Below, one piece after another: positions 909 to 56,474 of a DNA stretch of 64,000 nt; positions within the stretch are counted from its first letter, which is position 1, and each line of letters begins with the position of its first letter. Below the pieces are notes generated by a model that was given only the letters and a program-made list of their open reading frames with translations, had not been told where the DNA came from and made no database searches. The DNA is from Trypanosoma brucei. Lineage: Eukaryota. The translations under genes were made by a program, and so were the position numbers. The stretch spans positions 2,464,001 through 2,528,000 of the forward strand of contig CH464491.1 of assembly GCA_000002445.1 (NCBI GenBank), given 5' to 3'.

Positions 909-3900
909 ATGGGAAATCAGCTCGCAGCAGCCACCGTCGTAAATGTCTCCGATGTGACGTCATCACTAGAACTTATCGCTCCACTAAGTTGTATGCACCG
1001 CAACTACTTTCGTTCCTTCCGCTGCTCCAAGGAAGCGAGTGCAGCTGTACCCTCCGATACCCTTCGCTCACTTTACTCATTTTCTCGTGGTGACAATCGG
1101 GACCAATCCGCCCTGCACCATCGTCCGTCCAACCGCGGTGGGAGCACGGAAGTTGTTTTGAAGGTTTTCGTTCGCACACTTTATAATGAAGAGGAGCAGA
1201 AAGTTGTAGAATTTTGCTATAATCATTTGTTGAGTATTGAAAGACGAATGGCGGGAGCGAAGCCAGCTAACATGCAAAATACGGGGTCGTGTGAAACCGC
1301 AGCCAGTAACGGTTCTTCCCATGATAGCAGCAACTGCGGGGTTGCGACAACCCCGCCCCCGTGCAATGTGCTTTTCTATTCGTGTATGGAAATACAAAAT
1401 GATAGGTTTTGCATGCTTCAGCGGCCCTACGTTGCTTTTTCACTCGCTGAGCGCCTTGCCACACGACCATATTGGAGCACCGCAAACCGTCTCTTCGCCA
1501 CCTACCAGTTGTTGCAGGGTACAGTTCAGCTGCACGAAGTATGGGGAACCGTTCATGGAGACCTCAAGGTTGACAACATTCTGGTCAACACCTCTGGCTG
1601 GCTTTACATTACAGATATTTGTCCCTTTAACCCCGCACTGCTCCCAGCGAACAATCCAGCACTCTTCAACTATTTCTACGATACAAACGAGTCCCATATT
1701 TGCTCATTGGCACCAGAGAAATTCGTGGATCATCCAACCAACGTTAACACATCGAACCTCAACGCGACTGTTCACACACCTGGTATGGATATTTTCTCGT
1801 TGGCGTGTGTCGTGGTGTATATATTCACCGAGGAACCCCTCTTTCGCCTGTCAGAGGTACTCGAACTGCGCTCTCTGCAAACACAACGAGAACGTGAAGA
1901 AATGATAAACAGTATTCTGCAGGAGCGGGGTCTTGCACCTAACCTTTGCCGCATGCTTTCGGATATGTTGTGCACCAATCCAAATTCTCGCCCAACGTCA
2001 CGGCAGCTTCTTGAGAGGTACACCCCAACTGTGTTTCCTCCTTATTTTGAATACCTCTACCGTGACATACTACCGGCTCTGCTGCCGCGACCACCAGAAC
2101 ATCAGGTACAACTGCTGTGGTCTCGGCTGGATGACATTTTTGCTGAAGTGGAGTGCCGTGGCAGTTTCAATAGCGGTGGTGGTAGTGGCCACAACGGTGA
2201 AGCTGATGACGGTGAATTTCCTCCACTGGTGCCGTCAAGTGACGCCAAAAAGGTTACTGTGCTAGTGCTTATTCCAATAATTCTTAATGCAGGTCTACAC
2301 CTCATGGCGTCAGAAACATGTTGTCGTGTTGTCTCCATCGTTCAGCGGATACTGCCGCATTGTACGTTGGAAGTTCAAGCGGACGTAATTCTTCCATACA
2401 TGCTGCGTTTTTTGAGGACAGAAACGTTGCCTGTTGTGGCCCGCGTTCTCGCACTTCGTACGCTGTCTACGATCTGTCATAACATTCCCTTCTCCACAGG
2501 CGAGGCAACTGTCTTCGATGACCTTATCCTTCCGTGCGTGGAGGACCTCGTGGCGAAAGCAGACACTCAGAACGTTACACTTTTATTGGAAGTGGCTGCT
2601 CAACTGCCATCGTTATTTTTGATGGCACGGTCTTTTATGGAGCAGCAGCAGGCTCTTGTTACATCAAATGAACGACAAAGCACGTATGGGGAGCAACTGA
2701 ACAGGTTGCTTGAGCGCGGCTGGGATGCTCTGCGGACACTTTACAAGCACAATCATTCGGCTGTTGTCATTGCCGCACTTCAGCGTAGTGTGGACGTGGT
2801 AAAGTTTCTGGGTGAAGAGAGGACACAGCATGATTTTATTCCGTTCCTCACTACAGCTATTGCCTCCACCATTGATGTCCAAAGGGAATTATATCCACAG
2901 GCTATATTGTGTCATACAAACCTACAACGACCTCCACTAAAGACGCTGCGTTTTTTTGTGGAGGAAGCGTTGAGACGGACTGATGCGATTATTCTTCGGC
3001 GTGCTATCGAAAGTGTATCTGTCGTGGCTTCGAGCAAATTAGTTGATGTGAGTGATGTCATGTCACTTGCGGAATGCGTGCTTCCTCATATATTGGACAA
3101 AGATAAGTGGGTGAGCCTTGCTGCGCGTCAGCTAGTGGAGGTGGTCGCTCAAACTTACCGCATGAGTGACGTGTGCACGAGACTGCCAAGCACCCTGATA
3201 CCGTTATTACGATATAAGGTACCCTTTTCAACTCTTACATCTCTTCCAGAGGAACTGGTGAATGAAATATCACAACGACCATCTTTTTCCTTGAGGCATC
3301 GGGACGAGCGACCGACGGTTCGGGTTGTCGGCGGCGATTCGAAACTGTCTCGGCGTTTCATGAACGGTTCACGCAGTAGCGACAATAGCATCACTGAAAG
3401 GAATGTGATCAACGGTGGTGCGGGTGGTTTTGTCCAGTGTCAGTCAAATTATATCCTACAACATGGGACAACGAAACGTTTCCCGCCAAACTTTCCCTTA
3501 CGTGCGGCGTTTTTTGATGTAACGTTTGACCCTAGTGTGAGGGCCGGCACCCCTTCGGCACTGGACGCAGCCGCAGTTCACGACAGCAGTGACGCCACGG
3601 CAGCCTACGCGTGGGGGTTGACTTTCAAACCAACTCATCGTGAGAAAAAGCGGCTTTTACTTCGTCAGCAAACGTACACGAATCGTGTTGACAGTAACGG
3701 TGATATCGTTGGCGGCGCACTCTTTACTTCCACTACTGAGAGCACAACTGGAAGAAGACCGTGGTTACTAGGTCCTCCGACTGGATCCCTGAGTGTCCAA
3801 CCGTCCCCTGCTTTGTACCCCGGTGTGACTTGGGCTGATAAGGAACTAAAACCTATCGCTGCTCCGTACTTCACGCGACGGGCCCATAGTGGCGCCATCT

Positions 3901-5021
3901 ATAGTTCCGCCACAGTAGGGAGTGGAACACTGGTGACCGCGGGTGGAAAAGGTGAGGCGTTGCTCTGGTCTGTTACTGCTACGGGCGTAAACCTCTCCTC
4001 ACGCCTTAATGTTGGTGACGCCTCTAGCAAAAATACGTTTCTTTTCGTACACTTTGCTCGAGGCGGTGTTAGCCCGTTGTTGTGCATCGGAGGCACAGAC
4101 GGCACGTGGCAGCTCTGTGACATAGCGAGCAATAAAGTCGTGCAAGAGCGCAAACTTGACGGCAGCCCTTTGACAGCAGCATGCGCACTTAGCGAAGACG
4201 TGATGCTCGTATCAAGTGCACTGGGAGGACTGTTTGCTATGGACTATAGAGCGGGTCGAGAGGTGTGGAAGAGTGGCAGCATATTACCGGTGGAGTTCGG
4301 TACAATAAGCGGAGTGTACCCACTTTGCAGTGAGTGCCGAGCCTACGGCGCCGCGGTTACGACCATGGGGGGAGGTGTTGCCTTGTTCGACCTCCGCTTT
4401 GAGTTGCTTCTGCAAAAACACTGGTTACACGGTGCACCTATACAAGGTAGTCGTTCGATTGATAATCCCTATGCTATTTTGTGTGTCAGCCCCGATGCCG
4501 CCTGTAAGCCCGTACATCAATTAAATGAACACCCTGGGCTTTTGCTGGGAACTCGCTCAGGAATGGTCTATCACATGGATCTTATATCCGGTAGGTCGTG
4601 TGTGAGCCTCCGCCCTGCCACGCCCAACAATCCAACACGAGCTATGCTCCTTCAGCCGAGACACCGTCTCCTTTTCACTGCTGGAGATGATATGCAGATT
4701 CGAAGGTGGTGCCTTTCCAACTCCGCGCTGTCGTCGACTGTTGTCTTCCCCCCATACAACTCGTATGCGTATGCAAGAAGGACTAGCGGGTCTACAATGG
4801 AAGTTAGGCCATCATCGAAGTCTTCTAACGGACAGTTAGCTCCAACTGCTGCTGGCGCAACCACTGCGGTTAGCGCACCGCTGGTCCGACCTGTTGTACC
4901 CCAACATCATAGTGACGCTATTCTTACACTCTGTGGAGTCAGTGTGAGTGGTGGGGACGAGACCTACTTGGTGTCGGGATCCCGGGACGGGCAGTTGACA
5001 CTGTGGTTCAACGCTGAGTAA
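909..5021 (+). CDS. VPS15: VPS15 / PIK3R4-like PI3-kinase regulatory (pseudo)kinase, 1370 aa
   Basis: ATG-initiated 4113-nt ORF. The N-terminus MGNQLA is a Gly2 myristoylation-type start, like yeast Vps15 MGAQLS. The kinase-like core is collinear with Vps15 (VLKVFV ... HGDLKVDNILVNTSGWLYITDICPF ... LAPEKF). A long helical HEAT-like middle region follows. C-terminal WD40-like blades end in LVSGSRDGQLTLW. Confidence 0.85.
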   Translation: MGNQLAAATVVNVSDVTSSLELIAPLSCMHRNYFRSFRCSKEASAAVPSDTLRSLYSFSRGDNRDQSALHHRPSNRGGSTEVVLKVFVRTLYNEEEQKVVEFCYNHLLSIERRMAGAKPANMQNTGSCETAASNGSSHDSSNCGVATTPPPCNVLFYSCMEIQNDRFCMLQRPYVAFSLAERLATRPYWSTANRLFATYQLLQGTVQLHEVWGTVHGDLKVDNILVNTSGWLYITDICPFNPALLPANNPALFNYFYDTNESHICSLAPEKFVDHPTNVNTSNLNATVHTPGMDIFSLACVVVYIFTEEPLFRLSEVLELRSLQTQREREEMINSILQERGLAPNLCRMLSDMLCTNPNSRPTSRQLLERYTPTVFPPYFEYLYRDILPALLPRPPEHQVQLLWSRLDDIFAEVECRGSFNSGGGSGHNGEADDGEFPPLVPSSDAKKVTVLVLIPIILNAGLHLMASETCCRVVSIVQRILPHCTLEVQADVILPYMLRFLRTETLPVVARVLALRTLSTICHNIPFSTGEATVFDDLILPCVEDLVAKADTQNVTLLLEVAAQLPSLFLMARSFMEQQQALVTSNERQSTYGEQLNRLLERGWDALRTLYKHNHSAVVIAALQRSVDVVKFLGEERTQHDFIPFLTTAIASTIDVQRELYPQAILCHTNLQRPPLKTLRFFVEEALRRTDAIILRRAIESVSVVASSKLVDVSDVMSLAECVLPHILDKDKWVSLAARQLVEVVAQTYRMSDVCTRLPSTLIPLLRYKVPFSTLTSLPEELVNEISQRPSFSLRHRDERPTVRVVGGDSKLSRRFMNGSRSSDNSITERNVINGGAGGFVQCQSNYILQHGTTKRFPPNFPLRAAFFDVTFDPSVRAGTPSALDAAAVHDSSDATAAYAWGLTFKPTHREKKRLLLRQQTYTNRVDSNGDIVGGALFTSTTESTTGRRPWLLGPPTGSLSVQPSPALYPGVTWADKELKPIAAPYFTRRAHSGAIYSSATVGSGTLVTAGGKGEALLWSVTATGVNLSSRLNVGDASSKNTFLFVHFARGGVSPLLCIGGTDGTWQLCDIASNKVVQERKLDGSPLTAACALSEDVMLVSSALGGLFAMDYRAGREVWKSGSILPVEFGTISGVYPLCSECRAYGAAVTTMGGGVALFDLRFELLLQKHWLHGAPIQGSRSIDNPYAILCVSPDAACKPVHQLNEHPGLLLGTRSGMVYHMDLISGRSCVSLRPATPNNPTRAMLLQPRHRLLFTAGDDMQIRRWCLSNSALSSTVVFPPYNSYAYARRTSGSTMEVRPSSKSSNGQLAPTAAGATTAVSAPLVRPVVPQHHSDAILTLCGVSVSGGDETYLVSGSRDGQLTLWFNAE

Positions 5022-7084: not shown

Positions 7085-7413
7085 ACTGTTTCCGCTAATA
7101 CAGTTGCCGGGAAGGCAGGGGAGCGGGCACCGATCGTCTCGCTAATCCTCCCGGTTGCAAATTTAAAGTTGGGCTCCTATGTGGCAGCCCACTCGTCCAC
7201 TTGCGCTCTCTCAGCTGAGGCATCCCCTCGTCCGTCTTAAACCCCGTAGCAAACTCCCCTTATTATTATTAAGTTGTTTTGAGTTGATTCTCTCTGTCCC
7301 ATTTATATTCCTACTAATTTGCTTCTTATCGGATCAATCTATCTCGTTACGGATGTGGAGTGCCTCAGTTATTGGCGGGGGGCAGTGATCAAGCAAGAAG
7401 GAAACAATTGGCG

Positions 7414-9114
7414 ATGGATGTTTATCGACAAGCAAGTGAAATTGTGCGGGCTGTGCGTGAAGGAACCGGCACTGCCAAAGCGCTGTGTTTGCGTAAGGAA
7501 ATGCAGAAGAAGCGCCAAACGTACGCTGTTGTGTGCGAGACTCTGCGGCATTATGACCTTCTCCAGGATGTCCTCGAGCAAGCAGAATTCTTTCAATATT
7601 ACCCACGGGCCAATAGAGATTTTGCGATTTGCATGGCTTATGACGCTGTGCTTGGAAAGGGAGTCAACACCAACCGTGATACGACCGCGCAGGCTATTCA
7701 AAAGTCGGTGTCCTATCTTCAGGAGGCATACGAACGTGTGAAGAAGCACCATGTTATTCCCCCACGCGCCGGGGAGCTATTGACAGACGAGGAAGCTGGC
7801 CCCTGTGCACGCACCGGCGATCATAATAATGATGGGGGAAGGGTCAAACACAACGGTGTTGATGGCGGCTCGCTTGGGAAACATTTTGTTTCTGATGGTG
7901 AAGGTGCCGGTGACAACACCCAGGGACTGGGTTGTCTGATTCCGCGTTATGCGCGAGTGAACACGCTGAAGATTGATGTGGACAGCCTGGTGGAACGTCT
8001 TCGCCGTGCCTCCGCGAAACGCGAGCGTAACAATACGGAAAACTGTACAGGAAACGATCATAGTAGGCGCGATCATCGACATCGTGCAGCTGGAATTCGT
8101 GTACTGCCACCCTTTACCTTGGATCCTGTTGTACCGTCACTGCTAGTTTTCCCACCAGGTACCGATCTACACGCCCATCCGGCCGTTCGAAGTGGACAAC
8201 TTGTGCTACAGGACCGTGCATCGTGTCTTCCTGTTTGTGTGCTCCTTAATGCCGTGGAGGTTATCACGTCCTTCTCTGCTTCTGGAGAAGGTGAAGGTGA
8301 TAGCAAACCGGCTGAACCATTGGAATATGTTGTTGACGCCTGTGCGGCTCCTGGGAATAAGACAACTCAGCTGGCAGCCCTGGGTGCGCCTCATGTGAAG
8401 ATAATGGCGATTGAACGTGACGACAAGCGAGCTGAGTTGTTGAGGCATCGCGTGCAGAGCTTGGGGGCCGCTGATTACACAAACGTGGTTAATATGGACT
8501 TTCTGAAGATGGCACAAGACGATCGTGAGGTGACGGAAGGAATTTTGCTGGACCCAAGTTGCAGTGCCAGTGGCGTGCTGACAAGAGTGGATGTGGCCCT
8601 TTTGCGGAAGCAATGCGTTGCTGTGGATGGCAGCGGTATCTACACTAACGATGTTGTTCGTCAAGAAACTGCTGAGGAAGGGGTGAGCGAGACCGCTGTT
8701 GGTGGGGAAGTGGGCACCATAACTGCAGAGGCTCAAGGAGTCGGGTTTGCAAGCAACATGGAGCGCGTGATGGGCCTTGCCCGGCTTCAGCGCAAATTAC
8801 TTGCCCACTCACTTCTTTCCTTTGACAATTGTCGCACGGTTGTGTACTCCACATGCTCAGTGCATGAGGCAGAAAACGAGGAGGTAGTGCGGCAGGTTCT
8901 ACAGGACGAGCGGGTACAGGCTCGTGGGTGGGCACTTAGCAACATCATGCCGACGACGTGGCGGACGCGTGGGTGGAGGAACGACAGTGATACGTTTCCA
9001 CTTGAGTACACCATTCGGTGTGACCCCGAAGTGGACGCAACCAATGGTTTTTTTGTCGCTCGTTTCGACCGTGTTGTGGCGACGCCGCAGAAGAGGTCGA
9101 AGAAGAAGCGGTGA
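7414..9114 (+). CDS. NSUN5: NOL1/NOP2/Sun-family RNA cytosine-C5 methyltransferase, NSUN5/Rcm1-like, 566 aa
   Basis: The ORF-track start at 7360 is GTG; the first in-frame ATG is 7414 (MDVYRQASEIV). N-terminal TYAVVCETLRHYDLLQDVL resembles human NSUN5 YALVCETQRYSAVLDAVI (recalled). SAM-binding motif VVDACAAPGNKTTQLAAL. Catalytic Cys motifs LLDPSCSASG and VVYSTCSVHEAENEEVV. Confidence 0.8.
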   Translation: MDVYRQASEIVRAVREGTGTAKALCLRKEMQKKRQTYAVVCETLRHYDLLQDVLEQAEFFQYYPRANRDFAICMAYDAVLGKGVNTNRDTTAQAIQKSVSYLQEAYERVKKHHVIPPRAGELLTDEEAGPCARTGDHNNDGGRVKHNGVDGGSLGKHFVSDGEGAGDNTQGLGCLIPRYARVNTLKIDVDSLVERLRRASAKRERNNTENCTGNDHSRRDHRHRAAGIRVLPPFTLDPVVPSLLVFPPGTDLHAHPAVRSGQLVLQDRASCLPVCVLLNAVEVITSFSASGEGEGDSKPAEPLEYVVDACAAPGNKTTQLAALGAPHVKIMAIERDDKRAELLRHRVQSLGAADYTNVVNMDFLKMAQDDREVTEGILLDPSCSASGVLTRVDVALLRKQCVAVDGSGIYTNDVVRQETAEEGVSETAVGGEVGTITAEAQGVGFASNMERVMGLARLQRKLLAHSLLSFDNCRTVVYSTCSVHEAENEEVVRQVLQDERVQARGWALSNIMPTTWRTRGWRNDSDTFPLEYTIRCDPEVDATNGFFVARFDRVVATPQKRSKKKR

Positions 9115-9660: not shown

Positions 9661-12594
9661 ATGGCCGTCGGACTCTCATCGTCCAAAGGTGTTTTGGCAC
9701 TACTACGAGAATCAGACTCGGATGTGCTGCAGTTTGCGTTGAAGCGCCTGCGACCCTTGGTGGACACGTATTGGTGTGAGATAAGTGATGACCTTCCTTT
9801 AATTGAGAGTCTGAGTGAATCGAGTGATTTGGCAGAAGAAACGCGGGCCCTCGCTGCTCTTATTGCTTCGCATGTTTACTTTCACCTTGGTGCGTATAAT
9901 GACTCTGTGCATTGCGCCCTCGCTGCCGGGCCCGCGTTCAGCTATGTCGAGCGCTCACTCTTCACTGACACCATTCTCAGTTGCTGCATTGACAAATTTG
10001 TGGAGTACCAACAGAAGCCAGAAGGCGCGCGTGAAGAACTCGACCCTCGCCTTGAGTCGCTTTTCACAGCCCTCACCAGCAAATGGATTGGCCAAGAAGG
10101 CATGCCAGTGAAGGAACTTGTTGGATTTACCATTCGTGCACGACGCCTGGACTTTCTTGAAAAGGTTCTGCGTCAGCACATCAAATCTACCAAGTCTGCG
10201 GCGATCTTGAATTTCACATTCGAGGTGGCGAGTGTTCTTCTACGTGATATCGCTTTCCGACGGGAAATTTTAAAACTTCTTTCCGTTTTGTACGCACAAG
10301 GTGGTTTAACCACCGTCGACTACTTTTCTCAGGCACAGTGTCTTCTCTTCCTGGGAGACTCGACCGGAACTGCTGACCTTATTGAGGACCTAATCCGGTC
10401 GGGTGATAAGGCAACTGCATACCAACTCGCCTTCGATTTGCACGAGTACGGCAATCAAGAGTTTCTTTCCGCTGTTGCGGGTCTCATAGAAAAGAGGGCA
10501 ACTCTTTCTATACCCGCGCCGTCACAAGTGCAGCGGGTGGAAACGGCTACCGAAGACAAGTCCGGCAGTGGGGCCGATCATTCGACTTCGTCACAGGCAG
10601 CTGCAGGCCAGACAACGCAGGAGGGCGACAAAAAGGACATATCTGAAGTGCATCAGAAGCTTCTTTCCGCTCTTACTGGTGAGTTAACAGCGTCACTTTA
10701 CCTCCAGTTCTTGTCCGGTCAATGCAAAGCGGATAGCAATGTTCTCAACCGTATCAAGCAGACTACCGACCAGCGCAAGGCCGTGCCCCATAATGCTCTC
10801 ACAATAGCCCATGCACTGATGTACTGCGGAACTACGATTCACACATTTTTGCGCAACGATATGGAATGGTTTGGTGGTGCCACTTACTGGGGTAAGTTCA
10901 TCGCTACAGCCTCTATCGGGGCACTCCACTACGGACATGTTAATGAGGCACTCAAAATAATGGATTCATATCTCCCTAAGGACAACATCGGGGTGCTCCC
11001 ACACTCGGAGGCGGGTTCGCTTTATGCTCTTGGACTCATTCATGCCCCCGTTGGCGTGGGCCGCAATCAGGAAATAATTCTTTACTTGAAGGAAATGCTT
11101 CGCAAGTTCAGCGCAAGTGAGCACATTATTCACGGCGCATCGCTGGGCATCGGCCTTGCAGCCATGGGGTTGAAGGACGAGAAGTTGCACGATTCCCTCT
11201 TCACCTGTGTGGGCGGATGTGATGCCGTGGCCAGTGAAGGAGCGGCGCTTGGTATCGGTTTGCTCATGATGGGAAGCGGCAACTTGGGCGCCATTGGAAA
11301 CCTCAGGGCCCTCGCTTCTGAGGATAACCAAAAAGAAAAAACTATCCGTGGCATATCCATGGCTATGGCGCTGATGATGTTGGGTCGTGAGGATGAGTGC
11401 TGGTCTACGGCGAACGAGCTCCTCGAAGACTCCGATCCATGGGTACGGTTGGGTGGTTGTTTCATGCTCGGCTTAGGTTACGCAGGGGCTGAAAACACAA
11501 AAGTGTTGGAACGCCTTCTTAGTGTAACGGTGAAGGACACCTCCGATGACGTCCGCCGAAACGCTGCTACGATGATCGGATTTCTCACAATAAAGGATCC
11601 CGCATTGTGCGTGGAGCTGACCCGCGTGCTTGTGGACAGCTATAACCCACACATAAGATATGGTGTAGGAATGGCGCTTGCCGTCGCCGCTGCGGGAACT
11701 GGAATGCCAGAAGTTATTGATATACTGTGGGGACTGAAAGATGACATTGTAGATTTTGTTCGTCAGGGAGCGTACATTGCCCTTGCTCTGGTTATGGTCC
11801 AAGTAACGGAAGTGGAGAATCCAAAGGTGAAGGAGCTACGCGATATTTTTACTAAAATAATCGCGGGCCGCAAGGAAGATATGTGCTCCAAGTTCGGTTG
11901 CATTATAGCCACAGGTCTCTTAGACGCAGGGGGGCGCAACTGCACCTTTGCTCTTCATCGGCAGCGGCATCGTCTCGATAAGGCTGTTGTGGGCATGTTT
12001 GTATTCCTGCAGCACTGGTACTGGTTCCCGTATCTCCTGATGATCACACTAGCCATGCGTCCAACCTGTTTCATTGGCCTTAACAGCGACCTTGAGGTGC
12101 CAGAGTATGTCTTCAAATCCAATGCACCCGCAAGTCGCTTCGCCCTCCCTAAGAGTGTTTTGGCTGAGAAGAAAGAAGCAAAGGCCGCTGCTGTCAAGGC
12201 GGTGATCCTGTCTACAACAAAGAAAGAAGAGGAGTTTGTACGCTTAAAGCGCTCGGCGGTGGCTGGAAAGAATCAAGGAACGGGAGGGACTGGTGGTGCC
12301 GCTAATGCCGCAGCATCGCAATCCGGCGCCACCAAGGAGCAGGAAACGGAAAAGAAGAGGGAGCCGGAAGCTAATTTCGTGATACTATCGAACCCGGCCC
12401 GTATAACCGCACGCCAGTTTGCTGTCATTACTCACGACGTTGACAAGCGGTTCGTACCACTGAAGGAAAATCCTTCGTCTATATGCCTTCTGCGGGACAC
12501 AAACCCTGCGGAAGGAAAACCCAAGGTCATAACGGACTTGGGATGGAACAGCAGTGATGACGCGCCACCGCCAGAACCGTTTACATGGCCCTAG
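9661..12594 (+). CDS. RPN2: 26S proteasome regulatory subunit RPN2 (PSMD1), 977 aa
   Basis: ATG ORF collinear with yeast Rpn2 over its full length. N-terminal VLALLRESDSDVLQFALKRLRPLVDTYWCEISDDLPLIESL. PC repeats (HGASLGIGLAAMG, GAALGIGLLMMGSG, GGCFMLGLGYAG, YGVGMALAVAAAGTG). Further matches at DFVRQGAYIALALVMVQ, FLQHWYWFPYLLM, and C-terminal RFVPLKENPSSICLLRD. Confidence 0.9.
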   Translation: MAVGLSSSKGVLALLRESDSDVLQFALKRLRPLVDTYWCEISDDLPLIESLSESSDLAEETRALAALIASHVYFHLGAYNDSVHCALAAGPAFSYVERSLFTDTILSCCIDKFVEYQQKPEGAREELDPRLESLFTALTSKWIGQEGMPVKELVGFTIRARRLDFLEKVLRQHIKSTKSAAILNFTFEVASVLLRDIAFRREILKLLSVLYAQGGLTTVDYFSQAQCLLFLGDSTGTADLIEDLIRSGDKATAYQLAFDLHEYGNQEFLSAVAGLIEKRATLSIPAPSQVQRVETATEDKSGSGADHSTSSQAAAGQTTQEGDKKDISEVHQKLLSALTGELTASLYLQFLSGQCKADSNVLNRIKQTTDQRKAVPHNALTIAHALMYCGTTIHTFLRNDMEWFGGATYWGKFIATASIGALHYGHVNEALKIMDSYLPKDNIGVLPHSEAGSLYALGLIHAPVGVGRNQEIILYLKEMLRKFSASEHIIHGASLGIGLAAMGLKDEKLHDSLFTCVGGCDAVASEGAALGIGLLMMGSGNLGAIGNLRALASEDNQKEKTIRGISMAMALMMLGREDECWSTANELLEDSDPWVRLGGCFMLGLGYAGAENTKVLERLLSVTVKDTSDDVRRNAATMIGFLTIKDPALCVELTRVLVDSYNPHIRYGVGMALAVAAAGTGMPEVIDILWGLKDDIVDFVRQGAYIALALVMVQVTEVENPKVKELRDIFTKIIAGRKEDMCSKFGCIIATGLLDAGGRNCTFALHRQRHRLDKAVVGMFVFLQHWYWFPYLLMITLAMRPTCFIGLNSDLEVPEYVFKSNAPASRFALPKSVLAEKKEAKAAAVKAVILSTTKKEEEFVRLKRSAVAGKNQGTGGTGGAANAAASQSGATKEQETEKKREPEANFVILSNPARITARQFAVITHDVDKRFVPLKENPSSICLLRDTNPAEGKPKVITDLGWNSSDDAPPPEPFTWP

Positions 12595-13245
12595 CTTCAG
12601 TGGCATACCTTGTTAGGCTGAGGGATGGTAAGATTAAGGGGAAAGGGTGAAGAAGTATATATGTATGATTAGGCGCAGGGACGGTAAGGGTGTTATCGGC
12701 TCTCTCAGTCTTCCGTAGTTCTCTCCACTTTAATTATTGTTTTCAATGAAGTCAAAGACTCTTCTGTGCTTGTTTGTCTTTGTATTGGTGAGGGCGTGTA
12801 CGATTTGCGAGCAAACGAGTAGTTGACAAAGACCCTACCAGATTTGTGCGCTGCCCTCTGTCACGGAAGTTTTTTGAGCTACAGGTAGTGCGACAGAAGA
12901 GAGGAAAAAGAATAGAAGAAGGATGACATGAGAAACAAAGTGAACGAGGAAGGAACACGTTTGTTTGCTTCAAGAAGTTTCGCGAAATCAGCAGAAGTTT
13001 AGAGAACCTCCCATATTTTTTTGTTATTCGCCATCCGAGCCCGGTGACAGAGGGGCTACGTGAGGGGCAAAAGCGACGCCGTCTTGCCAAATCTGGTACT
13101 CTCTTTGTCAACCTGTCTGCACACTGCCCTCAGGTTGTTGATTCGTGGATATTGTCAAGCTTTCTCGTTACTGTTTTGCTCTATGTTTCTTTGTTGGTCG
13201 CCGAAGGAATTGTAGTGCAGTGAGGAAGACGAGCTGTTTTGTAGT

Positions 13246-14307
13246 ATGCTTCTGCAATTCAACTGGGACCGTCTTGACGTGACGGCCGCAGAGGCGATAT
13301 GCGCCCTTCTTAATGCAAAGCTTGAGGAGGAGCTTCTGCTGCGGCGCGCTGCGAACCAATCTGTCAATGCAAGCGGAGGTCAAGAGACTGCGAGTGCTGA
13401 CGCCGCTTGTGGCGTCGAATCACTACGAGTTACAAACATCGAGTGGGGAAATGTTCCTCCCTTCATTGAAGTAGTTGAGTTGGACGACGCTGTGGAGTTT
13501 GCCAGTAGCACCCCTCTATCTTTTGAGGCCCCACTAGGGCAACAGGACTTTGGGGGAACCATCTCAAGCGGTACATGCGGCGGTGGAGCCACGACACCTT
13601 TCTTTCTTCGTCCCTCACCTGCATCATCTGTCACTATGATGGATGGGATTAGCGAAACGGACTCAGGCATTGTGGGCAACCATGGTGGGATGCCGACTCC
13701 GTCAGTGCCGCCGGCGTCCGGGATACGCCCGGGAAACGGCCAGTCTCCGATCAATAGCTCAAGCGCACCGGTGAAGGACGCCTTCGCCGCGTATTTTGGT
13801 CCAAAGGGGTTGTACGTTTGTTTACATGTAACATACGGTGGACCCATGCGGGTTTCCGTGGCCTCCGTGCTGCGACACGATGTTCCACTGGGGCCCATCG
13901 CCATCCCCGTGCGGATGCCACTGCAGTTACACTTTTCGAAAATGGATATGGACTTCCACTTGTGCATTAACTTACATCGCAACACGTGCCGCGTATGGAT
14001 GGAACCGGGAAAGCTATTCACATCACCACTTAATAGAATGAATGTCATGGCGGTGTTCGGGGAGCGGCGACCGAGTTCTCAGCACATGGCAGAATTTCCC
14101 ACCAGCGGTCAGAACGCCGGTGACGACTTAGATACATCGGATGCATGGACGCATGTAGGGAGCAGCCGCATAGGCTCGGATGATGCAGAAGACATGGTGT
14201 TCATAGATGAGAGCATCATATCTCAGTTCGTTTTGAAGGAAGTACGGGCGATTCTGCAAGAGAAGATAATATACCCCCACTCTGTTGTGGTGCCACTGTC
14301 CCTTTAG
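13246..14307 (+). CDS. hypothetical protein with Mdm12-like (ERMES-type SMP/TULIP) layout, 353 aa
   Basis: ATG ORF. The extreme N-terminus [10 protein letters not shown] compares with yeast Mdm12 [32 protein letters not shown] compares with [38 protein letters not shown] compares with EVEYKGDLLVTIGADL. The C-terminal [28 protein letters not shown] compares with [25 protein letters not shown]. Yeast sequences are recalled from memory. A Gly/Ser/Pro-rich insert separates the blocks, as in fungal Mdm12. Confidence 0.55.
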   Translation: [353 protein letters not shown]

Positions 14308-14662: not shown

Positions 14663-14705
14663 TTTTTTTTTTGCTTCTTCTTTGTTTTGCTACTTTATGC
14701 AATAG
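14663..14705 (+). promoter_or_regulatory. polypyrimidine tract plus AG, a candidate trans-splice acceptor for the 14882 gene
   Basis: A T10 run and the pyrimidine-rich ttgcttcttctttgttttgctactttatgc are followed by the first AG at 14704-14705. Confidence 0.45.
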
Positions 14706-14881
14706 TAGTAATAAGGAAGGGGGTGCTAAAGTTGAAAAGTTTCTTAATCGTGATTCAACAACCAAGCGGAAGCAGAAACACCGCTCAGAGTTGCGAACAA
14801 ACGTGTGCATTCCTAGTGACGAAAGAAAACAAAAGGTTTACATTGGAGAGGCAGCATTGCATATACTTAGAGCAAGAACTC

Positions 14882-17800
14882 ATGCTAGAGTTTAGGCCCC
14901 AGCATACACCGGATTCAGCGGCTCACAAAATCAACCAGGTAGCATGTGCAACTCCAGACTCGGTGCCTACGAGCGTCTCCTGGCGCAAGGAAGAGGAGAC
15001 ATCCGGAGAGGTGACTAGGGCAACAATGATTTCATCAGATGCGCGAGAGGTGTCGCACATTGCGCGCATGGCGTCAGAACGGGGGCGAGTCGACATTTCT
15101 CAGGCACGCAATAGTTCACCTAGAGGAACAGCTACCGCGGTTAACGCCGTTGAGGTTGAACTTCAGCGGCGGCTTGATGTAGTGAAGGCGGCTGTTGAAA
15201 AGGCTGACAAGGTGGTCGACGTTGCACGCGGAAGATGTGCAGAGGTGATATCCCGAGAGGAACGTCGACGCGCCATGGTTAAGCTGGAAATTTCGAAGTT
15301 GATTCTTTTCGTTGGACGGAACTACAACATACTTGACGAGTTAGAGCTTACATTGGGTAGTGTGCTCGAAGTATCCGAACTTCCTGTTTACCACAGCGAC
15401 AAATATTCTGAAGTTCCCTTTTCCGCGCGGGAGATACCTCCATATTTGTCTCTGGAAGATCTGGAGCGGGCTAACAGAGAAATGATGGCCCGGTTGATGA
15501 AAGAGCGAACCAAGCGGGCAAACGATCCGCCTCATGCCTCGTTGCTGGGGAAACGGGTCAACTCTAATTTGGATGAAGTGATGTGGCTCATAGACTCCCT
15601 TGAGGAACCTCCCTGTTCTGAAGAGCAGTTCGGGGAAACTGTCGGGACAGGTGAAGAAGAAGAATGTGAGAAGTCACCTGTGGCTGTGTCACAGCGAAGG
15701 AGTCAGGCTATAACTTCTACCAGTGCTGCGAGAGAGACTAGGACGAGCGGAGTACGCGGGGCATCCTCGTCAGGGAACGCAACTCTTTGCTCGTCACGCG
15801 TGGAGATGGACAGCAGCATTGTTAACTTCTCCTTAAGTAGTGAGTCGTTTCCCATTGCCACGGGGGAAACCAGGGATCTGAAGCTGCTGAAATTCATGTA
15901 TGATGCTGCTAAGGCTACTGTGGAGGAAGCTGCGGCGGCGGAAGCGTTTGGTGCGTTCAGTGGCGCGCAACTCGGAACGACCTTTCGAAGCACGTCCAAT
16001 AGGTTGCAGCCCGCGAGAGACTCTTTCTGCACGCAACAATTATCCGGTGCGCTGTCGGGCACGATTGGTCTTAACTCACCCAGTAAGATTGACAGCGGGT
16101 GCAAAGAGCTGTCGTTTACTTCTAGTCGGCCGCCATCGGGGATGTTTGAAGACCGGGAATCATTTAGTTTGGAGCAGCATATTTCAGATAGGGCGCTACC
16201 GACGGCGGCAGCACCGTGGCGAGGTTCACATAATCCAAGTACAGTCGTTATAGATCATCTTGATCCCGAAGTGTTCACCGTTCTGGGGGAGCTGTACAAA
16301 GCCTATGACTACAGGCAATTTTTCCGCGATATCCAAAACAAGCACCTAATGAGGGGTAAGACGGATGACGAGTACGAGGCGGAAATAGAAAATCTGCTTA
16401 CACAGCACATGGATGACAAGCGCAAACGAGCTGCTAACAGTGTTAAGGACGAGTTGATCATCAAAAAATGGGGAGGGGTGGCCAGCGAAGCATCTCGGGC
16501 ACCGACACCAAGACAAGAGGTTGAGTTTGTTTTACCAGCTCGTCGGGAGGAAGAGGAGGAAACAGAGGAAGCAGAGAAAAAGTCCTGGTTGCAGTCAGTG
16601 GTAGAAAGTATGTCGCCACTTTCCTCCGCGCCGACCCCAGTGGAGGAAGTGCCGTCCCCATCTTTTCTCTCACAAATCCCTGTCGATGCGTTGGTGTTTG
16701 CGAGAGACATGAACAACGGTGTTGTTTTCTTCATTAGAGGTCGAAACGAGGAAGCTTCGAACGATGAAAAGACTCTGGAAGGTAAACGAAAGGGGAAGAA
16801 AGGTAAGGCGAAAAAGGATGGTGATCAAGAGGATCGCAATGCAGCAGGAGGTCCTCCAGTATATGACAGTTACACCCTGTATGTGACCAATCAGTCAGAT
16901 ACGAATCTGACGGTGGTGGTGGACATTGAGAAGACTAAGGCCCGCAAATTGAGAATGAGTGCACACGTGAATTATGCAATCCCGCAGGAGTGCATCGTTA
17001 TAGCTCCACCACCCGGGAGTCTCAAATCACTACTTACATTCTGTCCCAAAAAAAGGCAACAAATTGATTTTGGTGAAATACTTAGCTTTCGTGAGGGGAC
17101 GGCCAGGGGTGAGGTAGGCGGTACAGTAGGCGAGGAAGAAAAGCTTCAACTAAAAGCTTCATCTGGTGTATCCGCTCGAACTAAGGTTTCGGGTACTACC
17201 AAGGACTCCACAGTGAAAGAAGCTGGCGAGCCGGTAGCCGCCACCGAAGTTAGTAGCGAACGAGAGACCGCCGGCACCAGAGCTGAAGTCAGCGATGCGG
17301 CACCCACTACTCAGCCTTCAGTGACTGCCACCACAAAGGAGGAGGTGTCCCATAAGGAAGCGGACGCAGGTGAAGTGGTGAAGATCCTCGATGAGGAAGC
17401 TGACAGCTATGTAGCAGTTGGAGGTGGTAGGCGTACTAAAAAGAGGGCCGGTTGTGCGGCGATCTTATCAAAGTACCCTTCTACACGGGGTGCGGAGTGG
17501 GAGGCCAATGCACCTGAGAGCACCACCGCTGAGAGCGCTGGCTTTACTGAAGAAGGAGAGGCTTCGATACCCCCTGGTCCACCGCGTGGAGAAAGGGAAC
17601 CGAAGGGTGAAGAGGCCTCATCGCGTTCAAGAGCACGAGCGCGCGAAGCGAGTGGAGCAGCGAATAGGGCCTCTTTCCAGCAAGCAGTTGGTCGTACCCG
17701 TGAAACAGTTGAAAAGGTTTGGCCCACAGGCACTGCGCCTGTTGATCACTGGGGTGTGCCCCTCTCTAACGAAGAGGATGAGGCATTTGAAAAGAATTGC

Positions 17801-20590
17801 GTTGCGTTGACCATACTGCAGGGTGGCATGTGGTCAGAAGTGGACCCTTCGCATGGGATGGTTGGTGAAGAACCATTTGGTGGGTCGGGTGAAATTCCGA
17901 AGGAAGAAGCTGACAAACTCCTTGATACAAGTAATGCGGATGAAGAGGAACTGGTTAGCAAAATTCTTAACGCTCCCACCTCTGGTGACATGCACACACT
18001 GTCTGGTGGGCAACTGACTGAAATGGATAGCGCCGAGGGGATGGCAGCGGCCTTTCTCGGGCGCATCGCAGCCGAAGAGCATTTGGATGCGAGTAATTTT
18101 GAGCGCGGAGGAGTTTCGCCCCGTCGGTTGCCCTCTGACAGTTCGGGGGTGCCACAAACGACTTCGCACGCTGAGCAAGTCGGCGACGAGGCTGCTGTTT
18201 CTTTAGCTAGAAAAGGCAAACGTGTGAAGAATGCTACTTCCTCTGCTGATGGCGAACATACACCCAGATCGCCTACCAGGGCGCGAAGAGGAAGTGGAGA
18301 GAGAGAAGGTGTATCCCGTTCTAGCGCTGTAGGGTCACAAAGACTCAGTCCTGGTGCTAAAGGGGGAAAGGGTCGAAAGGAAGGGGTTGAAGGCAGCGCA
18401 GCTCAAGGTGGTGAAAGTTCTATTTCAACCAATGAGACCTCTGAAGCCAGGACGGGCGTTGGTTCCGGGAGAAGAGCTGATGGCAAGGTGGGAGCTGATG
18501 CCGGAAGAAGAGCTGATGGCAAGGCAAGGGCTGATGCCGGAAGAGGAGCTGATGGCAAGGCAAGGGCTGATGCCGGAAGAGGAGCTGATGGCAAGGCAAG
18601 AGCTGATGCCGGAGGAAGAGCTGATGCCAAGGCGGGTGCTGGTGCCGGAGGAAGAGCTGATGCCAAGGCGGGTGCTGGTGCCAGGGCGAGGACAAGTTCT
18701 GATGCTCGCGCAAGCGCTGATACCGGGGAAACCTCTGATACTGAGGCAAGCATTGGTGCCGGTACCTCTTCAAGAGAGGTTGAACACGGTGGAGTGAGGA
18801 AGAGCAAACTTCGGAGCTTGTCGAAGACGTCAGTCTACGGGAGTGCGAAAATGAAGAGGTACAGCCTAAGGACTCCACCCACCAGCGGCCGTTTCCAAGC
18901 AAGTTCAGGCACAGTGACAGATGGTGAACAACACGGTGATACCACTGCAACCGAAAGTTGTAGAGGAAGCGACAGCACTTCCCACACCCCACGCGGCCAA
19001 CCGTCCCATAGGGGGGTCCTCAGCGCCACGAGAAGCTCCTTTATTGCATCAGTCGATGATAAGTCATCGTGGAGGTCGTCAGTAACGCCTCGTGCCGATA
19101 GTAAGAGCGTTTCAGCATCAGCGCTGAAACATCTATTGGACCAGGTTAGGGTGAGTGAAAAGAAGGACGCAGAGGCACCAACGGGCTTCATTATGGAAAA
19201 GGGGGTTACAGAATATAGTTCACTGTTGCGCAAAGGTGTGCAGGGCGTACAACGCCACCTCTTTCCGGATCGTCAAAAAGTATGCACCAAGTCAAACACC
19301 CACGGCCGTGTGGCTGTGTACGTTCCCGACGACATGGTTGCAGGCACGCTAGTATCGACCGCTGCCAGGGACAATTACTATGGGAAGATGTCGAGACTGT
19401 CCGGCGCATTAACCTCCAATGGTCAAGCCGAAAACATTGTAGAATCACTTCGTGATGATCTTCACGACGTGGCGAAGACGTGCTTCGTCCGCAACAGGAG
19501 GGGGAACCAGAGAGCAGTATTCGGACAGCAAGGAGGTACTGGAGTCTCTGGAGGTAGCAAACGTGCCTCCAGTTATGCGGATAAGGCAGGTATCACATCC
19601 CTCCCCTTACTTTGTGCTCCTGATGTTGTGGAAGAGGTAAGAGACCTCAAAGTTGCGGGGGAAGAGGCACGGGACCTCTTCATTCGAGACCCCACTCGCT
19701 ACGACTGTGTCATCGACGACATCGTTCAACGTGCCATTCAGAGGGTGAACGGGGACGATACCAACTTCACGGCTCTAACAGGAGGCAGAAACGAATTCAG
19801 CATCAAAGGAACTGGGTTAGGGGGGGCACGTGAGACATTTGTATCCTCCAACTCCACCACTGGCGGTTCCCTCTCGGGTCACGGTGTCGGTGCAGTGCGA
19901 GGTTTCAGAGATAACAGAGGGAGGGATGTTGCGCACTCAAACGGCTTGGGTGCTTCTCCCCGTGGGGGCCCGAAACGTGGCGGCGGGTTGGAAGCTCAGT
20001 TGGCAGGAAGTTTCCAGCGGCTCCTCGACGAGCAAAACCGAGCGAAAAGGATTATCGCGTACGTGCTTATGGAAATGAGGCGCATGTGGAGGTTGAGGAG
20101 GCTGGAGGGTGACATCGCCCTCCGCGCGGCTGTGGATCGCTTTGTGTTCCGCTCACTTTCCTTCACCTGGCGCATCGAGCGCCGCCGAGTCCTCAACCTC
20201 AACAAACTAATCAATCTGCTGGACCGTCGCACAGGTCGCGTGAAGGGCTGGGTGCCGTTCTATACCAAAGACAATGTTTTAGTTGACCATTACCTTTGGG
20301 AACCCGTGCCACCGGAGCTCTCACACCAGATGAAGGTTGTCCATCATGCCATGTGTTTAGCACGGCGGCAGGAACTGCTTCCTCTGCGAACGGTGCGACA
20401 TCTTTCTACGTCGGATCAAAGCTCGCACCATCTGATGTTCGGTTACTCAAGGAGGTTGCTAGACCCCTTTAGAAACACAGCAGTGCAACTGAGGAATGAG
20501 AGGCGTGCACGTCATGCTGCATACTTCCAAAGGTCTTTGAGGCGCTTTTCTCCACAAACTGAATATCTGGTGGGGACGCCAAAGAACTAA
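14882..20590 (+). CDS. large hypothetical protein (about 1902 aa from the first ATG) with an internal 12-aa tandem repeat
   Basis: Uninterrupted 5.9-kb ORF. The track start at 14687 is TTG inside the pyrimidine tract. The first in-frame ATG is 14882, and 15026 (MISSDAREV) is an alternative. The sequence is low-complexity, Ser/Glu/Ala-rich, with a basic C-terminal region (RRMWRLRRLEGDIALRAAVDRF). I recognise no catalytic domain. Confidence 0.75.
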   Translation: MLEFRPQHTPDSAAHKINQVACATPDSVPTSVSWRKEEETSGEVTRATMISSDAREVSHIARMASERGRVDISQARNSSPRGTATAVNAVEVELQRRLDVVKAAVEKADKVVDVARGRCAEVISREERRRAMVKLEISKLILFVGRNYNILDELELTLGSVLEVSELPVYHSDKYSEVPFSAREIPPYLSLEDLERANREMMARLMKERTKRANDPPHASLLGKRVNSNLDEVMWLIDSLEEPPCSEEQFGETVGTGEEEECEKSPVAVSQRRSQAITSTSAARETRTSGVRGASSSGNATLCSSRVEMDSSIVNFSLSSESFPIATGETRDLKLLKFMYDAAKATVEEAAAAEAFGAFSGAQLGTTFRSTSNRLQPARDSFCTQQLSGALSGTIGLNSPSKIDSGCKELSFTSSRPPSGMFEDRESFSLEQHISDRALPTAAAPWRGSHNPSTVVIDHLDPEVFTVLGELYKAYDYRQFFRDIQNKHLMRGKTDDEYEAEIENLLTQHMDDKRKRAANSVKDELIIKKWGGVASEASRAPTPRQEVEFVLPARREEEEETEEAEKKSWLQSVVESMSPLSSAPTPVEEVPSPSFLSQIPVDALVFARDMNNGVVFFIRGRNEEASNDEKTLEGKRKGKKGKAKKDGDQEDRNAAGGPPVYDSYTLYVTNQSDTNLTVVVDIEKTKARKLRMSAHVNYAIPQECIVIAPPPGSLKSLLTFCPKKRQQIDFGEILSFREGTARGEVGGTVGEEEKLQLKASSGVSARTKVSGTTKDSTVKEAGEPVAATEVSSERETAGTRAEVSDAAPTTQPSVTATTKEEVSHKEADAGEVVKILDEEADSYVAVGGGRRTKKRAGCAAILSKYPSTRGAEWEANAPESTTAESAGFTEEGEASIPPGPPRGEREPKGEEASSRSRARAREASGAANRASFQQAVGRTRETVEKVWPTGTAPVDHWGVPLSNEEDEAFEKNCVALTILQGGMWSEVDPSHGMVGEEPFGGSGEIPKEEADKLLDTSNADEEELVSKILNAPTSGDMHTLSGGQLTEMDSAEGMAAAFLGRIAAEEHLDASNFERGGVSPRRLPSDSSGVPQTTSHAEQVGDEAAVSLARKGKRVKNATSSADGEHTPRSPTRARRGSGEREGVSRSSAVGSQRLSPGAKGGKGRKEGVEGSAAQGGESSISTNETSEARTGVGSGRRADGKVGADAGRRADGKARADAGRGADGKARADAGRGADGKARADAGGRADAKAGAGAGGRADAKAGAGARARTSSDARASADTGETSDTEASIGAGTSSREVEHGGVRKSKLRSLSKTSVYGSAKMKRYSLRTPPTSGRFQASSGTVTDGEQHGDTTATESCRGSDSTSHTPRGQPSHRGVLSATRSSFIASVDDKSSWRSSVTPRADSKSVSASALKHLLDQVRVSEKKDAEAPTGFIMEKGVTEYSSLLRKGVQGVQRHLFPDRQKVCTKSNTHGRVAVYVPDDMVAGTLVSTAARDNYYGKMSRLSGALTSNGQAENIVESLRDDLHDVAKTCFVRNRRGNQRAVFGQQGGTGVSGGSKRASSYADKAGITSLPLLCAPDVVEEVRDLKVAGEEARDLFIRDPTRYDCVIDDIVQRAIQRVNGDDTNFTALTGGRNEFSIKGTGLGGARETFVSSNSTTGGSLSGHGVGAVRGFRDNRGRDVAHSNGLGASPRGGPKRGGGLEAQLAGSFQRLLDEQNRAKRIIAYVLMEMRRMWRLRRLEGDIALRAAVDRFVFRSLSFTWRIERRRVLNLNKLINLLDRRTGRVKGWVPFYTKDNVLVDHYLWEPVPPELSHQMKVVHHAMCLARRQELLPLRTVRHLSTSDQSSHHLMFGYSRRLLDPFRNTAVQLRNERRARHAAYFQRSLRRFSPQTEYLVGTPKN
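18467..18682 (+). repeat. coding tandem repeat, 6 x 36 bp (GRRADGKARADA / GGRADAKAGAGA units)
   Basis: Units read at 18467, 18503, 18539, 18575, 18611 and 18647. Units 2-4 are near-identical. Units 5 and 6 are identical to each other and form a second subtype. Confidence 0.95.
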
Positions 20591-26175: not shown

Positions 26176-27009
26176 GGGTGACTCCCCAAGTTTTTGAGAT
26201 TCAGTTTCTGTATACGTTTCGTTTCGGTGTTATCATTCACCATTACTACTGTTTTCTCAACATCAACCCACTGAGCACGGATGTGCATGTGGGGTATTGT
26301 ATGTCTCTGGGCACTGGCAACGACGCAGGGGGAACAAATGTCCGAACTGGCCGGCTGCATATTTGGCAGATTCGGCTCTACTAAAAATGACGCGAAATGC
26401 AAAAAGGGATATACGTTATCTCCGTACTAATCTTTGCGCCTCCTTACGTGGTGTCAGTTATGAAGCTAATCTGCCTACCGCCCCCCCCCTCTTCCATTGA
26501 AACCCCGGTGTATACTTTTCGTTTTCTTTGTACTTTTCCTTTACTTCTTTTGTTTGTATATTTTATAATAAGGAAGTGGCTAACCTGTTGCTTATGGAAG
26601 TCAGTCGCGTTTTGTGCATGCAACATTGTGCTTAAACTTCAAAAACATTAAAGATAAAATAACGCATTGCACATCCTTCTTTTGCTTTTAATATGGTGTT
26701 GCATCTTGCCGACTGTCCGCCAACCTCGTTTTGCGCCACCAGCCTGTTTTCATTCTTCTTTTCTTTTATGTGTGTGTTATACTTCTCATGCGTTGTTAAC
26801 ACCACTGTAGTTTTCCACCTGTAGGAAACGCCAGGTGCGCCACGGCATCCAAAGGGTTACTCAGCAGAAACCTTACAAGGAAGCCAATTGTCTAACACGC
26901 TGCTGTGGAGGTTTCTATCTGCACCATTTTCCATTCATACATATACGTATACCGATTTCTTTACCCGAATATTTATTTTAAAAAAAACCGTACTCGGGCG
27001 GTTCTTGAA

Positions 27010-55294: not shown

Positions 55295-56293
55295 GGTTTA
55301 CTCTCTTTTGTTATTCACTAGAAGGATATGTGTAGTATATATTTCCCTATGTGAGTCGCTTATTTGCATACCGGTGAAGCGGTTCCTTATGGTGTCAGCG
55401 CCGATGCAGCAACACACGCCAAGACGACACCGCTCTGGTCGCTGGTGCTTTTTTTTTTTTTACTTCTATTTTTCTTTGCCCTCTGCGGCTACCAAAGGAG
55501 CCATCACAATTAGCAAAGGTAGAACTTAGTTGGCCGTACGGCGGGAAAGGTTGTGTGGTAGAATTGGTGTTGAATGTCCGGTGTTTTTCCAATATGTACG
55601 ATGCCGCGCAGAGGCGCAGTGAACCAGCAAAACTGTGGGGGACAAAAAGGAATATACTGATCTGCAAAAGGTCTCGGCTGACGTTTTACCACTTTTTGTG
55701 TACGGATGCGCCGAGACCGAGGTTGCAGTAAAACGTGGCACATAGGGAAAACGACAAAGAGCAATGCGAGCAGCCCCAATTGCAGGTCGCAGGCGCTCTA
55801 AGAAATAAAAGGAAGAGAATAGTGAGCAAGGCAATTCGGAAGCGTGGACCGGCGGGAAGTGCTCCGCGAGGAAAAAAAAATAAAGGCACGACTCAACAAA
55901 TCCACCTAAAAGTGCGGAGGAGAGCAGGATGGAATACATCAACTGCAACATTTATGGAACACAACACCAAGTCCAATTGCTTCCTGAAACAATTTTTTGG
56001 CGCTTGTGTAGAAAAGTGGAGCTGGAGCGGTGGAAACTCGCATGTGACTACATACTGCGATAAGTCATTAGTGAAAGGGAATTTGGGGTGGAGAGTGCAT
56101 ATGGGCAAAAATAGGTTTCCACAACAATTAAACACAAGATTGTTGATTGTTAGCAGTCGTCGCACTACCCGCTTGTGTGCAACAACTTGGCTGTGATATG
56201 GAAATGCTGTGAGCCGACGAGGTCGGGGGAGCGGATGCCAGTTTGGGGGGGCGAATCCCTTTCTTGATTTCCTCTGCCTGGCGCAAGAATGCA

Positions 56294-56313
56294 CCCCCCC
56301 CCCAAAAAAAAAA
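56294..56313. repeat. C10A10 homopolymer pair
   Basis: Direct count: C at 56294-56303 and A at 56304-56313. Confidence 0.95.
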
Positions 56314-56459
56314 GAAAACAGCTGGGGAAGCCGAGAAACACCACTGCCCAGGAGAGTATCAACGAGAAAGACAATCTCGCAAGGTTTAAATCCGACTAAT
56401 AACATTGTTGACAGCAACCCCTTTCTGATGTTCAGCAATTGTAATGTGTCTCTCGGCCC

Positions 56460-56474
56460 GGGGGGGGGGGGGGG
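56460..56474. repeat. G15 homopolymer at the skew switch point of the strand-switch region
   Basis: Direct count. Confidence 0.95.

Follow-up and report, generated by a model that had tools for sequence, protein, structure and literature searches.

An Mdm12-type SMP-domain protein of Trypanosoma brucei, conserved across Trypanosomatidae, supported by family profiles and predicted structure

We analyzed an open reading frame (ORF) located in a 64,000-nucleotide stretch of the Trypanosoma brucei genome (GenBank assembly GCA_000002445.1, contig CH464491.1, positions 2,464,001 to 2,528,000 of the forward strand; hereafter, the window), for which a first-pass annotation made by eye had proposed kinship with Mdm12, a subunit of the fungal endoplasmic reticulum (ER)-mitochondria encounter structure (ERMES). 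Sequence profiles and predicted structure identify its product as an Mdm12-type protein, soluble and made of a single SMP domain with the TULIP fold, and as a real but very divergent relative of yeast Mdm12. Ranked by profile scores and by structure scores, the protein resembles Mdm12 more than it does Mdm34/Mmm2, Mmm1, E-Syt or TMEM24. We estimate the probability of this reading as a whole, including the working mode proposed below, at roughly 0.9, an estimate based chiefly on the family call. That call, for its part, is strongly supported but not new: the presence of Mdm12 in T. brucei was already proposed in 2013, and the protein is automatically annotated as SMP-LTD, so that the premise of novelty attached to the first-pass annotation found no support.

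The statistical support arises from profiles and structure, and not from pairwise or single-sequence methods. A profile restricted to nine Trypanosoma sequences (A1) was compared exhaustively, by HMMER, with 1.84 billion representative proteins, and retrieved 42 relatives at E ≤ 1e-3, 32 of them at E ≤ 1e-10. When a 46-sequence family profile was compared with the PDB, all seven distinct Mdm12 sequences were recovered (E 2.1e-14 to 8.6e-13), in an end-to-end alignment of profile positions 10-294 with Mdm12 residues 2-264, and the only other match was Mmm1, at E 0.028. As a control for profile contamination, a strict kinetoplastid-centred profile (A3) was limited to 24 sequences, all with E ≤ 1e-28 to the Trypanosoma profile. 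Aligned by hhalign with yeast Mdm12, this strict profile covered 232 columns and Mdm12 residues 1-262 of 263 (E 2.3e-5, probability 76%), and it paired the four Mdm12-like blocks recognized by eye alike and in the same order. Thus, the N-terminal beta-strand starting at residue 1 (MLLQFNW) falls on yeast MSFDINW, an internal block faces the yeast Mdm12 segment EVEYKGDLLVTI, and the C-terminal amphipathic segment lies on the yeast C-terminal helix. Independent references were provided by the published ERMES proteins of the jakobid Andalucia godoyi (Discoba; supplement of PMC7050145). Against the strict profile, Andalucia Mdm12 reached 35.6 bits in hmmsearch and 97% in hhalign (E 1.1e-10), as compared with -0.7 bits and 4% for Andalucia Mdm34, and 0 bits and 2.8% for Andalucia Mmm1. 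In addition, phmmer with Andalucia Mdm12 alone singled out this ORF among the 443 ORF segments of the window (E 0.0012).

The same comparisons bear on the possibility that the protein is an ortholog of Mdm34/Mmm2 rather than of Mdm12. The two paralog families are close, as Capsaspora CAOG_01118 (P0049), among the weakest of the relatives retrieved, carries precomputed matches to both PF26544 and PF26545, and MSFxF-type N-termini, with a beta-strand at residue 1, occur in both paralogs. Nevertheless, every clean profile places Mdm12 far above Mdm34. Beyond the Andalucia scores, profiles free of canonical Mdm12 gave yeast Mdm12 39-46 bits and yeast Mdm34 1-4 bits, and leaving out Capsaspora and seven other weakest members still resulted in 39.4 bits versus 1-4 bits; in hhalign, the SMP region of yeast Mdm34 yielded a 21-column match to the strict profile, at 6.7%. 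The yeast Mdm34 sequence used here was validated by its close similarity to a genuine Mdm34 fragment from the database (P0057, matching PF26545). Moreover, in canonical Mdm34 the SMP domain is followed by a long C-terminal extension, whereas the trypanosome protein ends with its SMP domain. An Mdm34/Mmm2 identity is, in our judgment, quite improbable.

The AlphaFold prediction and fold search called for by the first-pass annotation revealed an SMP/TULIP fold. AlphaFold2 run with nine close orthologs gave an unusable model with a predicted local distance difference test (pLDDT) score of 39.7, which was excluded from the fold search, while the 46-sequence alignment resulted in a mean pLDDT of 74.8, with 173 residues at 90 or above. 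The latter model displays the elongated barrel of the SMP fold, with a highly twisted beta-sheet packed on long helices. In Foldseek searches of the PDB, Mdm12 chains took each of the first 19 places (E 3.6e-6 to 8.1e-4, probability 1.00, target-normalised TM 0.50-0.61), followed by Mmm1 at E of about 0.15, and other TULIP folds appeared only above E 3. Structure comparison ranked the candidates in a similar way, with scores of 12.8 for Mdm12 5yk7_D (172 residues aligned, 22% identity), 11.3 for Mdm12 5h55_A, 9.5 for Mmm1, 6.7 for the E-Syt2 SMP domain, 6.3 for a Takeout-family protein, and 6.0 for the TMEM24 SMP domain.

This ranking also concerns the idea that the protein is unrelated to ERMES and belongs to another class of SMP/TULIP proteins, generic or lineage-specific (E-Syt, TEX2/Nvj2, TMEM24, or BPI/takeout-like). 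The UniRef label of the family, "SMP-LTD domain-containing", is indeed generic, and the broad MMM1 model is the only related Pfam match among family members. Proteins of the E-Syt, TMEM24 or TEX2 type have a transmembrane anchor and, next to the SMP domain, further targeting domains such as C2 or PH, none of which is present here, and these identities were rejected; Mmm1 was discarded as well, given its background profile scores and the lack of an N-terminal transmembrane anchor in the trypanosome protein. We consider membership in another SMP class very unlikely.

Several observations weigh against the Mdm12 assignment and its functional reading. The single sequence matched 0 Pfam families at E ≤ 10, BLASTP against yeast Mdm12 was not significant (E 6.8), and phmmer against the PDB gave no relevant match, only a spurious 31-residue similarity to an oligosaccharyltransferase (E 0.46). 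The Trypanosoma-only profile scored just 4-12 bits against the Mdm12 references, and found nothing relevant in the PDB; six of the seven best PDB matches of the strict profile were Mdm12 chains, at non-significant E values of 0.17-1.2. The significance of the PDB profile matches therefore depends on intermediate sequences, which come from metagenomes and are mostly of unknown taxonomy. Furthermore, the structural match is only partly independent of the sequence signal, because the AlphaFold training set includes Mdm12 structures. From the literature, a 2019 review (PMC6871780) runs counter to an ERMES-type role for the T. brucei homologues. The candidate that Wideman et al. (2013) proposed is most probably, though not certainly, the gene described here, as the exhaustive search gave only one Trypanosoma family with Mdm12 affinity. 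Regarding Pfam, where a scan of all nine Trypanosoma orthologs likewise returned only noise, the negative result is uninformative, because the references themselves are barely or not recognized: yeast Mdm12 matches only the generic MMM1 model PF10296 (33 bits), Andalucia Mdm12 remains below threshold (18 < 21.9 bits), and the Mdm34 references match nothing. Altogether, the profile check proposed by the first-pass annotation was negative for the single sequence and positive for Mdm12 with family profiles and hhalign.

The non-significant pairwise similarity to yeast Mdm12 would also fit a chance resemblance or a non-coding ORF, a reading that we regard as hardly conceivable and that is refuted by the conservation data. 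Single orthologs were found in T. congolense, T. vivax, T. grayi, T. rangeli, T. conorhini and T. cruzi, with 49-70% identity to the T. brucei protein and block-wise conservation, and T. equiperdum TEOVI_000475800 matches it at 100% identity; the confident fold, the relatives at E ≤ 1e-10, and the sense orientation of the ORF in a polycistronic unit point in the same direction. These orthologs assign the window to chromosome 11. The gene is conserved and single-copy across Trypanosomatidae and related kinetoplastids, including the leishmaniine and Phytomonas lineages. Named relatives comprise Phytomonas sp. Hart1 (CCW68656.1), T. melophagium, and the leishmaniine Porcisia hertigi; UniRef names both the Trypanosoma and Porcisia orthologs "SMP-LTD domain-containing protein", which implies an automatic PROSITE match. 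The relative from Perkinsela sp. CCAP 1560/4, an early-branching kinetoplastid, was deposited as "Mdm12 protein" (P0044, KNH01802.1; E 5.5e-8 versus the Trypanosoma-only profile). The proteins from Porcisia hertigi (P0016) and Phytomonas (P0013), and the related P0011-P0019, conserve the SMP blocks and are 509-721 residues long (509-635 for the Phytomonas and Porcisia lineages), because their disordered inserts are greatly expanded. Two more word-indexed homolog searches, with a broad alignment and with an insert-trimmed one plus yeast Mdm12/Mdm34, returned almost only known Trypanosoma proteins and no canonical Mdm12/Mdm34 sets, their only additions being a T. cruzi fragment (P0056) and the above-mentioned P0057. 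As a side observation, a 51-residue "hypothetical protein [Streptomyces guryensis]" (P0059, WP_269787769.1) clusters at ≥90% identity with a 481-residue eukaryotic Mdm12-like protein (P0020 cluster), and is probably a eukaryotic contamination of a bacterial assembly.

With respect to protein architecture (Table 1), the model shows, from the N- to the C-terminus, a short strand at residue 2, a long helix (12-42), a beta-hairpin (56-80), disorder (98-167), five long strands (189-271), disorder (283-311), a helix (322-340) and a strand (347-350), after which the protein ends within 3 residues. The first strand runs from Met1, and the hairpin carries the motif WGxxPPF[IV]E; M1, F5, W7, W67, G68, P72, F73 and E75 are invariant across Trypanosoma. 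The central sheet, with pLDDT of 93-96 in its strands and 75% identity within Trypanosoma, contains the motifs GLYxxLHVTYGG, LPVRMP, DMDF/DLDC, NLHxNxCRVWxEPGK and FGE, while the C-terminal segment reads VDExxISQFVLxExRAILQEKxxYPH. The disordered insert noticed by eye between blocks 2 and 3 was recovered as a poorly conserved region rich in serine, glycine and proline, with 34% identity among Trypanosoma versus 64-75% in the SMP core blocks; its length differs between lineages, and it occupies the same position as the acidic insert of yeast Mdm12. The second insert is absent from the first-pass annotation. No transmembrane segment was detected, the maximal 19-residue Kyte-Doolittle mean being 1.11 versus a usual threshold of approximately 1.6, and neither Pfam nor the model, which consists of the SMP core and the two inserts only, indicated accessory domains.

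Table 1. Features of the window, listed by position
Feature	Position in window	Strand	Basis or remark
Protein kinase	909-5021	+	1370 aa
NSUN5-type RNA cytosine methyltransferase	7360-9114	+
Proteasome subunit RPN2	9661..12594		Pfam RPN2_N, E 1.4e-67
Pyrimidine-rich stretch, then several AG dinucleotides (13205-13243)	13150..13245	+	read directly from the sequence
Complete coding sequence, Mdm12-type SMP-domain protein	13246..14307	+	353 codons plus stop, intact ORF
SMP domain, N-terminal half (aa 1-82)	13246..13491	+	aligned to Mdm12 residues 1-64; pLDDT 83-96
Disordered S/G/P-rich insert 1 (~aa 83-177)	13492..13776	+	composition; pLDDT <50 for 98-167
Central twisted beta-sheet of SMP domain (aa 178-273)	13777..14064	+	aligned to Mdm12 residues 119-230
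Disordered acidic/serine-rich insert 2 (~aa 274-320)	14065..14205	+	pLDDT <50 for 283-311; S and D 15% each
C-terminal amphipathic helix (aa 322-340) and final strand (aa 347-350) closing the SMP barrel	14206..14304	+	pLDDT 86-94
Large low-complexity ORF	14687-20590	+	1967 aa, without Pfam domain
36-bp tandem repeat within the 1967-aa ORF	18465-18688	+	5.7 copies, 91% matches
PX - protein kinase - lipocalin-like protein	26905-29586	+	893 aa; Lipocalin_5, E 6e-46
Strand-switch region	~55300-58000		large ORFs all + until 55294, - from 58009

We then related these results to what has been reported for kinetoplastids. The first-pass annotation had taken the ERMES subunits Mmm1, Mdm12 and Mdm34 to be reported as undetectable in these organisms. 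Several sources disagree as regards Mdm12 and Mdm34: a passage of PMC6027259, which, citing Wideman et al. (2013), describes Mmm2 and Mdm12 orthologs as proposed in T. brucei and not examined in detail; Table 1 of PMC6871780, which credits T. brucei with ERMES homologues, with the footnote that they form no complex and take no part in ER-mitochondrion contact sites; and the Perkinsela GenBank name and the UniRef label. As the annotation had itself tied novelty to the absence of an earlier description as an ERMES component, its claim to novelty lapses. The Mdm10-like barrel TAC40 is described as having a role only in kinetoplast DNA (kDNA) segregation, and the proteins behind ER-mitochondrion contacts in trypanosomes as unknown (PMC8630539). 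In a proteome paper on diplonemids, the ERMES SMP subunits were not found. A 2023 review (PMC10341546) states that Leishmania donovani is without SMP-domain proteins, which is doubtful since an ortholog was found in the leishmaniine Porcisia. A dedicated functional study of a trypanosome Mdm12 did not turn up in the searchable literature.

The crystal structures of Mdm12 (5GYD, 5H54, 5VKZ and 5YK7), together with biochemistry, are the basis on which lipid binding and SMP-SMP pairing can be ascribed to the trypanosome protein. By homology of fold, the hydrophobic groove of its SMP barrel would bind the acyl chains of glycerophospholipids. By analogy with Mdm12, the conserved N-terminal strand or head (M1, F5 and W7) might pair with another SMP domain, either that of a second copy of the protein or that of the proposed Mmm2/Mdm34-like protein, and such pairing would allow lipids to pass between membranes. 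According to the PDB entries and to PMC10648710, fungal Mdm12 lies in the cytosol and links Mmm1, which is anchored in the ER, with Mdm34/Mmm2 at the outer membrane, the latter anchored by the beta-barrel Mdm10, and the ERMES SMP domains make a hydrophobic path for phospholipids.

A direct extension of this scheme to trypanosomes would be a divergent ERMES-like ER-mitochondrion tether, in which the protein would be a working subunit that bridges an ER-anchored SMP protein to an outer-membrane Mmm2/Mdm34-like protein and beta-barrel, carrying phospholipids such as phosphatidylserine and phosphatidylcholine into the single mitochondrion. Orthology to Mdm12 favors such a tether, as does the invariance of M1, F5 and W7 at the extreme N-terminus, the region that mediates SMP-SMP contacts in Mdm12, and a precedent for component replacement is found in the divergent ERMES of Trichomonas, which, according to PMC10648710, has a lineage-specific porin instead of Mdm10. 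However, the cited literature offers Mmm2 and Mdm12 for T. brucei and no Mmm1 candidate, neither this window nor the searches made supplied a partner (no second SMP-like ORF, Mdm34 or Mmm1, was found in the window), and the 2019 review denies both complex and contact role. A tether of this kind thus appears rather unlikely.

In our view, the protein most likely works instead in an Mdm12 module that has been reduced or rewired, as a cytosolic protein for lipid transfer or bridging and not as part of a canonical four-subunit ERMES, because of the missing Mmm1 candidate, the dedication of TAC40 to kDNA inheritance, and the denial of complex and contact role in the 2019 review. More specifically, and only tentatively, since kinetoplastids keep Mdm12 (and reportedly a Mmm2-like protein) without Mmm1, and TAC40 is diverted to kDNA segregation, the conserved Mdm12 may belong to a non-canonical assembly. 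There, it could form a lipid bridge with lineage-specific partners at an ER-mitochondrion, an acidocalcisome-mitochondrion, or a tripartite attachment complex (TAC)-proximal contact, the lineage-variable disordered inserts perhaps serving as docking sites that replace those of Mmm1. Firm sequence and structure support for an Mdm12-type SMP protein throughout Trypanosomatidae corrects the impression of SMP absence, and makes this protein a well-validated candidate for experiments on inter-organelle lipid transport in trypanosomes, such as the supply of phospholipids from the ER to their single mitochondrion, even if it is no new kind of system.

At the gene level, an in-frame stop lies 10 codons 5' of the ATG, so that Met1 is the only possible start of the ORF. 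By analogy with the known trypanosomatid trans-splicing signal, the pyrimidine-rich stretch and AG dinucleotides preceding the ORF are likely the spliced-leader acceptor region and a short 5' untranslated region. The ORF has the same orientation as the many + strand ORFs that follow one another from 909 to 55294, as is usual in a polycistronic unit of trypanosomatids, and lies directly 3' of RPN2; the methyltransferase and protein kinase genes further upstream have no evident functional link to it. Downstream follows the large low-complexity ORF, whose tandem repeat encodes the peptide repeat GRRADGKARADAG. A T. melophagium gene model (P0010, 2281 residues) fuses the Mdm12-like ORF (residues 1-352) to a long downstream protein; this is probably an annotation run-through, and suggests that the Mdm12 gene and the low-complexity ORF are syntenic neighbors across Trypanosoma. 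Elsewhere in the window, an 893-residue protein of unusual architecture joins a phosphoinositide-binding module and a kinase to a small-ligand-binding barrel. The strand-switch region, near which the sign of the GC skew flips (56-60 kb), has the appearance of a site where two polycistronic units converge and end. A search of the whole 64-kb window gave no tRNA genes.

In comparison with known systems, the trypanosome protein shares approximately 11-22% identity in structural alignments with fungal ERMES Mdm12 (S. cerevisiae and K. lactis; PDB 5GYD, 5GYK, 5H54/5H55/5H5A, 5VKZ and 5YK7). Its first insert is longer and rich in serine, glycine and proline, while that of the fungal proteins is acidic; moreover, the C-terminal helix is preceded by a further disordered insert, and the loop found inside the sheet of yeast Mdm12 (residues ~183-212) is lacking. 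Mmm1, with its N-terminal transmembrane anchor and lumenal segment, and Mdm34, with its C-terminal extension, differ from the trypanosome protein, which has neither, and the profile scores of Mdm34/Mmm2 and Mmm1 against the trypanosome family are at background. Fungal Mdm12 has Mmm1, Mdm34 and Mdm10 as partners, whereas Mmm1 is apparently missing from trypanosomes. By profile, the Andalucia godoyi "ERMES protein Mdm12" (PMC7050145) and the Perkinsela "Mdm12 protein" belong to the same family as the trypanosome protein, and the three have in common the motifs N-terminal [FI]xW, G..PP.[IV]E and Y.G; Andalucia, however, keeps the full SMP trio of Mmm1, Mdm34 and Mdm12, while the candidates reported for trypanosomes are limited to Mdm12 and Mmm2. 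In T. brucei itself, the characterized extended synaptotagmin TbE-Syt (PMC8093936) is likewise an SMP-domain lipid-transfer protein.
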